Source: Nitrosopumilus sp. (lineage in GTDB: Archaea > Thermoproteota > Nitrososphaeria > Nitrososphaerales > Nitrosopumilaceae). Taken from it: 64,000 bases of DNA. The translations under genes were made by a program, and so were the position numbers. Where the stretch lies: assembly GCA_965203315.1 (NCBI GenBank), contig OZ241857.1, forward strand, positions 1,536,001 through 1,600,000, in the 5' to 3' direction. Below, piece by piece: positions 7,366 through 10,541 of this stretch (position 1 is the first letter of the stretch; every line of letters begins with the position of its first letter). The notes below the pieces were generated by a model. That model made no database searches. It saw only the letters and a program-made list of their open reading frames with translations, and was not told where the DNA came from.

Positions 7366-8175
7366 TATAATAGACATTATGCGTTAGTCGTTTTGACCGA
7401 AACACTTAGATCGTAGGTCTAAAAATAGCAATCATTGAGTCAAAAAACTAGTACGTCAGACGGACAAATACTGTGTCTCCAGCAAAGAGTAAAAGAGTTA
7501 GAGCAGACTGTTAGTGAACTAGAGCAACAACGAGATACTGTTGCAGAACAACTCGACCAAGAGGCGAACAATAAACCTAATTTTTACAGACAGAAAACAG
7601 AAAAGGTTGATGATTTTTGTAAGAGGATCCTCTCCAAACCAACTACTTTGTATAAATTCACAAAAATGACGCCCAATCTATTCGCGCTGTATGAAAAAGA
7701 ATACAAACAATACATCAAAGATGAATCAATTAGAGAGAGACGCAATGATCAACTCAACAAGAGACGTAAAGAGAAACTAGATGGTGAACCAAAGATACCA
7801 CAATACTCTGGCGTTAATGTTGGACGAGGAAAGGTGTCAGTATTAAGCACAACAGCTGTCATGTTGATGGAGTTTATGTCTACTCGAGCTGGAATGACTC
7901 AAGATGTGATTGGGTCCATATTTGATATGAGTCAAAGCAATGTCTCTAGACATACTAGACATGTACGTAGATTCCTGAATCAATCTTGGACAAGACCAAT
8001 AGATATAGCAGACCAGATCTCTAAATGTAAAACATTACAAGATCTACGAGAATGGATTCCTCGCTTAAAGACTGCAATTGATGGGACTCATTTCATAATC
8101 GATATACCATCAGATTCTCAGTTAGAAACGTGGTCAAGGTCTGGCAAACTAAAGAAACACACTTGTGTAATTCTA

Positions 8176-8388
8176 TCCATGTGAACTGTTTATAAAGCTT
8201 TTAGAGATTTTTCGATTTTGGTGCATAGTTTACACTAGGGTGGTATTCCTCACAATCACAGGATTTCGGACATATATCCATTCGAGCTCGAAGCTCAGTA
8301 TCATCTTCATCCTTTTATCAAAATCAGTCCACTTAGTGAGCCGAGGTTCTCCCTCATTGAATTACCGGACTTTAGATTTTGACTATAA
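8176..8388 (-). ncRNA. Predicted bridge RNA / seekRNA of the IS1111 element
   Basis: Two stem-internal loop-hairpin modules (8326-8371, 8268-8312) whose loops match the target site and the donor junction; transcript ends unknown. Confidence 0.75.
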
Positions 8389-9420
8389 TTACACAACAAA
8401 CTTTTTCTCCTCTCTGAGCATGCAATGTATCACTCGAAGTAACTTGGCAGCTGTAGCAACAGTAGCTTTGCTCTTTCCACGCTTTTCTGCGAGTTTAAAA
8501 TAAAATTTTGATACGTTTGTGTTTGGATAATATCGCACATGCGTGTGTACTGCTTCAGCTAGAATCCATCTCATTATACGACTGCCCTGTTTTGTTATCT
8601 TGCCATGTACTACTTTGTCTGCGGAATTACGTACCGATGGAACTAGTCCTGCATATGCACATAGTTTATGTGAATCATTAAATCTTGAAATCTCTCCAAT
8701 CTCTGCGGTAATTACCAGTGCGCTGTAATCACCTATGCCAGGAATTGACTTTAAGAGCTGTGCATCTTTTGATCTCTTTACCTTGTCTGCTATTCTAACA
8801 TCGCATTCATTGATCTCTATATTCAATGACTCTATCATTCTCAAATACGAGTTTATACGATAGTCATCAAGTTTACGTAATTCTGCGTTGTATCTCTTAC
8901 TAAACGTGGTACCTTGTATCTGTATTCCACTCTGCAACAATATGCCGTGTATTAGATTCTTGTATCTTGTTCTGTTTTTTATGTGTCCTTGTCTATGTCG
9001 CACTAGTCTCTTTGAATCAATAGTATCATGATCCGGTACATAACATTCTGCAATGTATCCTCCTCGTAGCAGTTCTGCTAGTATCTTTGAGTCTACCTTG
9101 TCTGTCTTTTTCTTTGATGCTGCTATCGCTTTTGTTTGGTACGGATTCGATAGTACTACATCAAATCCCAACTCGTCTGTCATATATCGATACAATCCAT
9201 ACCAGACTGAAGATGACTCCATTACATAACGGGTCTTGTCTGCAGGGAATTGCTTGAATGTCTCTGCAACACTATAGTGATTTGTCATTATGCGTTTGTC
9301 TAGTAAGATGTTGTCATCTTCATCGATTGCTGTCACATACAGAGAGTTCTTGTGAACATCTATTCCAACATAGATCGTTCTTGTTTTTACTTTTTTGGTG
9401 GGTAATGTGTTTGTTTGCAT
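8389..9420 (-). CDS. IS110-family recombinase/transposase (RuvC-like DEDD + Tnp Ser domain)
   Basis: GIDVHK, VMESS, KTDKVDS, SIPGIG, AYAGLVPSVRNSA motifs; intact. Confidence 0.95.
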   Translation of the reverse strand: MQTNTLPTKKVKTRTIYVGIDVHKNSLYVTAIDEDDNILLDKRIMTNHYSVAETFKQFPADKTRYVMESSSVWYGLYRYMTDELGFDVVLSNPYQTKAIAASKKKTDKVDSKILAELLRGGYIAECYVPDHDTIDSKRLVRHRQGHIKNRTRYKNLIHGILLQSGIQIQGTTFSKRYNAELRKLDDYRINSYLRMIESLNIEINECDVRIADKVKRSKDAQLLKSIPGIGDYSALVITAEIGEISRFNDSHKLCAYAGLVPSVRNSADKVVHGKITKQGSRIMRWILAEAVHTHVRYYPNTNVSKFYFKLAEKRGKSKATVATAAKLLRVIHCMLREEKKFVV

Positions 9421-10541
9421 TTTTTGCCATCTTGGCTAGTTTTGCAGATGATCGCTTGGATCTAACATGCTTGGTATCATCTGATCGATTTCTTTTCGGC
9501 TTCACATATGGTTAGTGATGGTGAACAAAGAAAAACTGATCCTAACTATGAGCCCATTATACTATGGCAGTACGCACGAGATAACCATACTCAAAGAGTG
9601 GAAATTGGGATTTGGTAAATGGGAAGACAAGATGAGAGATCCATCAACTCCACGTAAAGAGAGAATAAAGATGCGTCAGGATTCTGCATACCAAGGTGGC
9701 GAGAGTGTATTTCCAGGAACAAACTTTATCGTACCATTCAAAAAACCTCGTGGCGGCGAGCTCACCAAAGAGCAGAAAGAGTTTAACCGAGATCACAGCT
9801 CAGAACGCGTGGTGGTTGAAAATTCCATAGGAATGATCAAGCAGTATCGTCACATGCAACAACAAATTGAATGTGTTGAACCTGATTTAGAAAAAAGAAT
9901 CGAAGAGGTAGCAGCACTTGTAAATGCAGGCATATTATGGGACAAAAGACGCGATCGACCGACCAAGAGATTTGACAAGCTATTGCGTGCATATCATCGG
10001 CGTGCCAACAAATTGAGAAAGAGATACGGCTAAAACATCATAAATGCAATACCGGATACCATTATCTGTTTATGATTTACTGTATTCCTGTACATTCGTG
10101 TACAATAACGCAACATTTTGACTGTATTTGCAAAGTTGAATGAGATATTCTAATTTTAGACACTTGTGTAATGACGTTGACGCAATAACTTACGAATTTC
10201 AACCAGCTTTGGTATCGTTGAAAACGACTAACGCATAATGTCTAGAATAGTTAGGCAACATCTCAATGCGTTAAGACGAGCTGGTAAATTACCAAAAGTA
10301 GTAGACATTGCAATAGACATGCACTGCTATCAGAGATACGACAAAGAACAAACCAAATACACTGTAAAGACCATGTTCAAGAAGAGTGTAAAACTATGCG
10401 AAGAGTACATGACTGCACAGATTGTAAACGTTGGAGCAACGTTAACCGTAGCTAAATTACAAGTGAAAAAAGGTGCTGGAAACCCAGATCTTATACGTAA
10501 AATCATCAAAACCTGCCACCAGCAGAGACTAATCCTAGGCG

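Follow-up and report, generated by a model that had tools for sequence, protein, structure and literature searches.

The stretch of DNA analysed here (the window) comprises 64,000 nucleotides (nt) of contig OZ241857.1 from a Nitrosopumilus sp. assembly (GCA_965203315.1). On its minus strand, at positions 8176–9514, lies a complete insertion sequence (IS) that we assign to the IS1111 type of the IS110 family and that is predicted to encode its own bridge RNA (also known as seekRNA). The element is 1339 base pairs (bp) in length, counting one copy of its TA core. Read on the minus strand, it is composed of a TA core, a 92-nt left end (9512–9421), a 343-codon frame (9420–8389) and a 213-nt non-coding right end (8388–8176), which terminates in TTCACATGGA and is directly followed by a second TA. 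The two TA copies, at 9513–9514 on the left and 8174–8175 on the right, are taken as the crossover dinucleotide on the basis of the window sequence, the relatives of the element and empty sites; the right copy falls immediately beyond the interval given by an earlier, sequence-only reading of this DNA. On the minus strand, the left junction reads CATCAC-TA-ACCATATG (TA at 9514–9513) and the right junction reads CACATGGA-TA-GAATTACA (TA at 8175–8174). The TA core is present on both sides and there are no inverted repeats at the very tips; 7-bp subterminal repeats sit 5 nt (left) and 3 nt (right) from the core and have counterparts in relatives. The left repeat, ATGTGAA (9501–9507), is preceded by the first 5 nt of the element, ACCAT (9508–9512), which are predicted to be read by the donor-loop 5' guide described below. 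It is the reverse complement of the right repeat, TTCACAT (8179–8185), with at most one mismatch in most relatives, and the right repeat is followed by a GGA terminal extension (8178–8176).

The element interrupts a DDE_Tnp_4-type transposase gene on the plus strand that belongs to another IS. The 5' part of this host gene is found at 7435–8175 (HTH_Tnp_4, 2e-5, under the Pfam cut-off) and the 3' part at 9515–10033 (DDE_Tnp_4, 4.8e-14). Four uninterrupted paralogs, with an intact frame of 421 amino acids (aa), are present in this genome (designated G000) at C1:1831943-1833142, C1:1606662-1607861, C1:1072888-1074085 and C6:67472-68669, and each provides an empty site with a single TA, TGTAATTCTA-GTGATGG (GTAATGG in one of the four). 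Because these four sites join the flanks precisely, the boundaries of the element are exact: the insert is exactly 1339 bp with one TA copy, and nothing else is duplicated. Across the 2.47-Mb (megabase) genome, an unoccupied copy of the exact 13-nt target (4 nt + TA + 7 nt) turns up just three times, each time in a host-gene paralog. One DNA contig among the sequencing-run contigs omits exactly the 1339 bp, which is explained by the existence of the uninterrupted paralogs. The interrupted IS itself has five copies in the genome at 97–100% identity (600-nt flanks compared), with more distant copies at approximately 77–93%.

The recombinase gene (8389–9420, minus strand) encodes 343 aa with a DEDD RuvC-like domain, a coiled coil and a Tnp domain with a catalytic serine. 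The protein matches PF01548 (6.4e-25) and PF02371 (2.8e-23), both above the curated Pfam cut-offs, and residues D21, E68, D107, D110 and S266, which align to the catalytic residues of IS621, are invariant in an alignment with seven homologs. The serine lies in the motif GLVPSVRNSA; the residue after the invariant serine is A in five of the eight proteins and G in three. The only solved structures matching the recombinase by sequence are the IS621 (5e-10) and ISCro4 (3e-9) transposases. When an AlphaFold model of the protein (predicted local distance difference test [pLDDT] score 85.7) was compared with known structures using Foldseek, synaptic-complex chains of IS621 (8wt9) and ISCro4 (9t56) were aligned over approximately 341 columns, with template modelling (TM) scores of 0.70/0.75 and E values of about 1e-15. 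Chains of these two systems fill ranks 1–10 (E 1e-15 to 1e-13, TM 0.67–0.77); the weaker matches after those include TasH and archaeal Nop5, in line with the literature.

Among the best 80 of 443 confirmed stretches, the closest recombinases (45–56% aa identity) are in Nitrosopumilus or Nitrosopumilaceae records, and the next relatives (approximately 32–39%) are in other archaea, candidate phyla radiation (CPR) bacteria and rhizobia. The genome carries an archaeal amoA gene (1.2e-116), and its owner is a Nitrosopumilus-like ammonia-oxidising archaeon. The sequence-only reading had proposed that excision of 8176–9514 would restore the target, that the protein is an IS110/IS1111 recombinase and that the host oxidises ammonia. 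The first proposal is exact at the four empty paralogous sites. The second agrees with the Pfam domains, catalytic residues and fold, as well as with an IS1111 layout, repeats and guide order (discussed below), and the third with the presence of amoA and the provenance of the closest homologs.

Predicted bridge RNA and its pairing with target and donor

A bridge RNA is predicted at 8255–8386 on the minus strand (135.5 bits with the covariance model R1, described below), comprising an outer stem around a target-binding loop and then a donor-binding loop. The target-binding loop (8326–8371) has the stem AGUCC/GGACU, an internal loop and the hairpin GAGG(GAGAA)CCUC. Its 5' guide, GUAAUUC (8359–8365), is complementary to the sense-strand right flank GAATTAC (8173–8167) at 7/7 positions, and its 3' guide, CUCACUA (8334–8340), has the sense of the left flank and core combined (ATCAC+TA), matching at 6/7 positions; the first position of CUCACUA is probably outside the guide. 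The donor-binding loop (8268–8312) has the stem GGAU/GUCC, an internal loop and the hairpin GAGC(UUCGA)GCUC. Here the 5' guide, AUGAU (8300–8304), is complementary to the left end ACCAT at 4/5 positions (one A-C mismatch), and the 3' guide, AUGGAUA (8275–8281), has the same sense as the right end ATGGA plus the core TA (7/7). Using ViennaRNA, the first module is found in the minimum-energy fold and both modules are found in the centroid.

Eleven further full-length relatives were identified in the same genome by DNA search. Together with the window copy, which stands for lineage A, they make up five lineages: C is present in six copies, E in three identical ones and D in one, and B is at 75% identity. 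These are mutually 61–75% identical, except for C and E, which are approximately 93% identical. A TA is found on either side of every full-length copy apart from one in lineage C, the left end of which is deleted. Protein searches recovered relatives in 11 of 61 related genomes (this genome included), and 443 of 571 candidate stretches were confirmed in contigs of Genome Taxonomy Database (GTDB) species, of which the best 80 were retained. Nitrosopumilaceae relatives contribute approximately 20 lineages beyond the five of this genome.

A plain MAFFT alignment of 11 sequences analysed with RNAalifold recovered the outer stem and donor loop only, because the target-loop stems were misaligned; the structure was therefore written by hand on a six-sequence alignment, and the remaining sequences were realigned by Infernal. 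The resulting covariance model, R1 (six sequences plus the hand-written structure), matched 36 sites in the loci of 87 relatives, in the 3' non-coding region, and 51 sites in 48 loci once the loci of this genome were included. Four matches that were candidates for orphan bridge RNAs (L014, L016, L017 and L018, at G000:C5:~139.5k, C1:~89.9k, C1:~172.9k and C1:~812.6k, respectively) were rejected as such: scoring from 94.6 down to 27.8 bits and found without a recombinase, they are decayed 3' remnants of elements that keep the last recombinase codons.

Element ends were located without the target guides. For the right end, the 7-mer given by the donor-loop 3' strand was sought 50–130 nt downstream, where by our own estimate an exact 7-mer would occur by chance in approximately 0.5% of cases; an end was found for 43 of the 51 R1 matches, and the 7-mer was exact in 37 of the 51. 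The left end was placed using the reverse complement of the right subterminal repeat and a fixed 5-nt offset. This mapping yields 37 distinct insertion events in 28 lineages.

In each of three comparisons, the loops match the DNA of their own lineage better than that of others, and none of 20,000 permutations reaches the observed score. The right flank agrees with the lineage's own 5' target guide at 6.93/8 positions, compared to 4.47/8 in cross-comparisons (28 lineages). The left flank agrees with its own 3' target guide at 3.24/5 positions (cross 1.21/5; 21 lineages), and this test is independent because the left flank is located from the inverted repeat rather than from the guide. The left end agrees with the 5' strand of its own donor loop at 4.18/5 positions (cross 2.81/5; 17 distinct combinations). 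The core positions of the 3' target guide also follow the core: they are TA in lineages with a TA core, and the single lineages with AA and GG cores have AA and GG, respectively, at these positions. In the model-fitted alignment, the stems comprise 27 pairs in six helices, with 94.6% of cells paired versus 33–45% in slid controls, and 21 of the 27 pairs have compensatory changes in which both sides have changed.

The same pattern is visible within this one genome. When the 3' regions of its lineages are aligned, the stems and donor guide are constant, and the target-loop strands are lineage-specific and match their own flanks. Downstream of the stop codon, 11 of 191 nt differ between lineages C and E, and eight of these differences fall within the two 7-nt guides (8 of 14 guide positions); their targets are likewise different (GACC-TA-ATATC for C and AAGT-TA-AAAGAAC for E). 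Within lineage C, in which all copies carry the same loops (one base differs in one copy), the target consensus is common to five of the six copies, and in the sixth (C1:673041) the right-flank match is shifted by 2 nt.

A match of at least 6/7 on the right flank is found in 25 of the 37 insertion events. In these 25, the gap between the 5' target guide and the hairpin is 2 nt (n=14), 3 nt (n=5), 4 nt (n=5) or 1 nt (n=1), a spread that rules out a fixed register for this guide. The 3-nt register of the window copy is common to four other insertion events.

The sequence-only reading had described the two modules at 8371–8326 and 8312–8268 with match counts of 7/7, 6/7, 7/7 and 5/7, all of which were recovered in the window sequence. 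The last count referred to a 7-mer, AGAUGAU (8306–8300), as the guide to the left donor end; the count stands and the length does not, as the guide that holds across the family is the 5-mer AUGAU, matching at 4/5 positions. Its identification of target and donor loops is upheld by the covariation over approximately 28 lineages and by the compensatory stem changes, and the loop-flank covariation that it expected among other copies and homologs is present for each flank. Its TA core is consistent with the way in which guide core positions track TA, AA and GG cores. The term 'reprogrammable', also used there, appears apt in that sister lineages C and E look to have been reprogrammed naturally.

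Several individual copies are of interest in their own right. One lineage, represented in Nitrosopumilus metagenome-assembled genome (MAG) records (L061:2531-2668, L096:2522-2659 and L077:1113-1250), carries target guides corresponding to the left end of a sibling element of the IS110 type, and is found inserted at that end (ACTA-TA-TGTGAATAAG), such that one bridge-RNA element targets the end of another. A second lineage, with three copies on one Nitrosopumilus MAG chromosome (L053, L054 and L056), has TG at the right junction and TA at the left junction (the latter located in L053 and L054 only). Its 5' target strand has CA, the complement of TG, and TA is the core expected from its donor guide; one side seems to have kept a mismatched core that escaped repair. 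In the lineage-C copy L013 (G000:C1:1216124-1217429), 28 nt of the left end are gone, among them the inverted repeat and the stretch that the donor guide would read, in a deletion that extends between the core TA and an internal TA. A different lineage-C copy, L008 (C1:231872-233210), adjoins a tandem duplication of its 13-nt left target sequence. Finally, a whole element with a significant R1 match and a 50% identical protein (L063) accounts for the whole of a 1281-bp contig in a bacterial MAG titled Campylobacterales, for which a binning error is more likely than transfer between domains.

Weighing of the evidence and alternative explanations

We consider it very probable that the window holds an intact element of the IS1111 branch in a Nitrosopumilus-like archaeon, inserted at a TA in the transposase gene of another IS, with a 3' non-coding region encoding a two-loop bridge RNA of approximately 130 nt. 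The window copy alone is suggestive of such an RNA, short of proof. It is across the family that sequence evolution follows exactly the pairing rules of a bridge RNA.

Under the proposed mechanism, the 5' strand of the target loop would pair with the sense strand of the right flank (over 7 nt here and 7–9 nt in relatives), and the partner of the 3' strand would be the opposite strand across the left flank and the TA core (4–5 + 2 nt). In the donor loop, the 3' strand would read the core together with the final 5 nt of the right end, and the 5' strand the first 5 nt of the left end, these two stretches being adjacent in the excised circle. By homology, excision is expected to yield a circle joining the right end, one TA and the left end. 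As in IS621 and ISEc11, a recombinase tetramer with its RNA would then bring the circle junction and the target together; strand exchange would take place at the TA core via S266 and the DEDD site, followed by resolution of a Holliday junction. Transcription of the RNA, its binding to the recombinase, the chemistry of strand exchange and the continued mobility of the window copy are all inferred.

A number of observations weigh against this interpretation. The folding energy of the 213-nt region is no better than that of shuffled sequences (ViennaRNA z = -1.53; 15 of 200 shuffles fold as well); because the thermodynamic fold alone is not significant, the RNA structure rests on covariation. No Rfam 15 family matches positions 7900–9800 (E-value mode). 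The stem pair counts lean towards the model, the alignment having been fitted to its structure, and the permutation values overstate independence because related lineages can share both guide and target by descent. In 12 of the 37 insertion events, the right-flank match is below 6/7 in any register. On the left flank, lineage L083 scores 0/5 and three rows score 0, two of these being loci cut at a contig end; such poorly matched events reflect insertion off target or ends that were mislocated. Among lineages, the register of the 5' target guide varies by 1–4 nt. In the window copy itself, the 5' target strand matches one of the two core positions and the 5' donor guide has one mismatch, which appears to be tolerated since it recurs in lineages C and E, both of them multi-copy. 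Lastly, the window copy is the only full-length member of lineage A, and its three perfect targets are unoccupied.

This last point also bears on the alternative that survives best, namely that the bridge-RNA mechanism was used at insertion and the copy is now silent or a dying relic. We regard this as plausible, though the less probable outcome. The only other lineage-A piece is a 443-nt fragment at 97% identity (G000:C1:846044-846486), which has a different left flank and has lost its non-coding region. A near-perfect target site is empty as well as the three perfect ones, several such elements survive in the genome only as decayed 3' remnants, and the window recombinase lacks the ATG used by other lineages and starts 16 codons upstream. 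Against this, the reading frame is open, and the five catalytic residues, both ends and all RNA stems are intact. The donor-guide mismatch need not signal decay, in that lineages C (six copies, 98–100% identical) and E (three identical copies), both apparently recently active, share it; low copy number is also common among site-specific insertion sequences. Judged from its sequence, the odds that the window copy is still active are roughly even.

A second alternative is that the guide-like segments act as DNA, with single-stranded or extruded subterminal hairpins pairing with the target as in elements of the IS200/IS605 type. Covariation and compensatory changes indicate a constraint on pairing and by themselves cannot separate RNA from single-stranded DNA. 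The recombinase, however, has structural homology over its full length to IS621 and ISCro4, both solved in complex with bridge RNA, and Siddiquee et al. (2024, PMC11187229) report that the non-coding RNAs of IS1111-type elements co-purify with their transposases and are needed for transposition. G-U pairs are also frequent in the stems (UG in 38 of 39 cells at one pair and in 32 of 40 at another), and RNA therefore fits better than DNA. Pairing as DNA thus seems very improbable. The weakest alternative, that the loop-flank matches are chance resemblances in an A/T-rich genome with short guides and a weak thermodynamic z-score, the region being only a 3' untranslated region or a protein-binding end, is effectively refuted by the outcome of all three permutation tests, by the confinement of the exact target to host-gene paralogs and by the coincidence of guide changes with a target change between the 93% identical lineages C and E. 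The bridge-RNA reading remains the one we prefer.

A/T box at the right end and neighbouring mobile DNA

A conserved, outward-facing A/T box, TTTATAAA, is located at 8189–8196 (minus strand), 13 nt inside the right end. Of 20 distinct right ends, 16 have the motif TWWAWA 19 to 22 nt ahead of the terminus, among them that of a lineage with 59% G+C. Archaeal TATA boxes lie approximately 26 nt upstream of the transcription start, and given this spacing the box would start transcription a few bases past the right end, that is, into the left end of the circle. A junction promoter is known for IS110-family elements, and the box is possibly an archaeal version of it: a TATA box reading across the circle junction. 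It could alternatively serve as a read-out promoter.

The genome also contains a 26–30-nt terminal repeat, GGATCTTTTCGGTTTACGTGGGATGG, with approximately 103 occurrences at five or fewer mismatches, often as inverted pairs approximately 90 nt apart that resemble miniature inverted-repeat transposable elements (examples are found at G000 C1:846487/846576, C1:807812/807900 and C1:540070/540157). This repeat abuts the lineage-A stump at C1:846044-846486 and lies less than 300 nt from the remnants L014, L016 and L017. Since it adjoins several IS110-type fragments, this second mobile family may trim such elements; the arrangement suggests that the repeat family cuts them down.

Relation to known systems and significance

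By sequence and by modelled fold, the element belongs to the IS110 family. Assignment to the IS1111 type is supported by layout, repeats, protein length and guide order. The longer non-coding region is downstream of the recombinase gene (213 nt versus 92 nt upstream); on the sense strand, the right flank is the complement of the 5' guide, and the left flank with the core has the sequence of the 3' guide. As described in PMC11187229, IS1111 elements have a long downstream non-coding region, subterminal repeats of 7–17 bp, a protein of 330–350 aa and an RNA in which the segment complementary to the top strand is 5'. According to Durrant et al. (2024, PMC11208160), the predicted bridge RNA of IS1111 elements lies in the right end, with a prediction made for 93.0% of those in ISfinder.

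The closest counterparts in architecture are the IS1111-family seekRNA elements ISEc11, ISKpn4, ISPa11 and ISPst6 (PMC11187229). Like the window element, these have a DEDD recombinase of 330–350 aa with a long non-coding region downstream and subterminal inverted repeats with short terminal extensions. Two short RNA segments match both strands of the target, the one complementary to the top strand coming first, and the targets are lineage-specific and often in repeated or mobile DNA. The window element differs from these in its archaeal host, in being known here from sequence alone and in its RNA, which has no match to an Rfam family or published model. It differs from the IS1111 serine motif given in PMC11187229, GL-P----S(t)G (SG, TG and rarely TA), in reading SA at this place. 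Protein identity to the enterobacterial plasmid-borne IS110-family transposases is approximately 24–27%.

The window element is also comparable to IS621 and ISCro4 (Durrant et al. 2024, PMC11208160; PDB 8wt6-8wt9, 9t56), with which it shares the full-length fold and catalytic residues at approximately 22–23% sequence identity, and the plan of one target-binding and one donor-binding internal loop, in which both strands around a 2-nt core would be read and the core paired. In contrast to these elements, the RNA is at the 3' (right) end rather than the 5' end, the strand-specific guide order within each loop is reversed, the core is TA rather than CT and the inverted repeats are 7 bp rather than 2–3 bp. 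Among named insertion sequences, ISHvo9 from Haloferax volcanii is the nearest; this archaeal IS110-family element has a transposase that is 36% identical over 95% of the length. Next to ISHvo9, R1 run with filters off gave nothing significant, its best match (E = 0.49) lying upstream of the gene; the RNA of ISHvo9, if any, differs from the R1-type RNA in form or place.

None of the papers within reach of our literature search describes a Nitrosopumilus bridge RNA or an experimentally studied archaeal one, although archaeal elements with RNA predictions may already figure in the ISfinder-wide supplementary tables of PMC11208160 and PMC11187229. Both 2024 papers surveyed ISfinder entries, including haloarchaeal elements, a preprint by Vaysset et al. 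counts 662 archaeal IS110 recombinases, and a preprint from 2026 reports 32,190 bridge-RNA loci mined from the genomes of bacteria and archaea. The element is a new archaeal family using the known bridge RNA/seekRNA mechanism first described in 2024, and it opens no new principle because that mechanism is already published, IS1111 elements included. A broader and more doubtful proposal, which we put forward only tentatively, is of a bridge-RNA radiation centred on the Nitrosopumilaceae with three undescribed features: co-resident reprogrammed sisters (one of them directed onto the left end of a sibling), a conserved TATA-type box, firing across the circle junction as an archaeal counterpart of the bacterial junction promoter, that would turn on recombinase and RNA only once the element has been excised, and a flexible register of the 5' target guide.

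One genome here offers a natural reprogramming series, with five lineages, five targets and exact empty sites, which is convenient for working out the guide rules of IS1111-type RNAs, a group less studied than IS621. To our knowledge, there are no genetic tools for ammonia-oxidising archaea. A compact, RNA-guided recombinase native to archaeal transcription and chromatin would be a starting point for such tools and, if the element is active, these archaea would have a native programmable recombinase. In their preprint, Vaysset et al. propose that Nop5 and box C/D ribonucleoproteins descend from IS110-like elements, and the RNA partner predicted here in an archaeon may make the comparison between IS110 and Nop5 more concrete.

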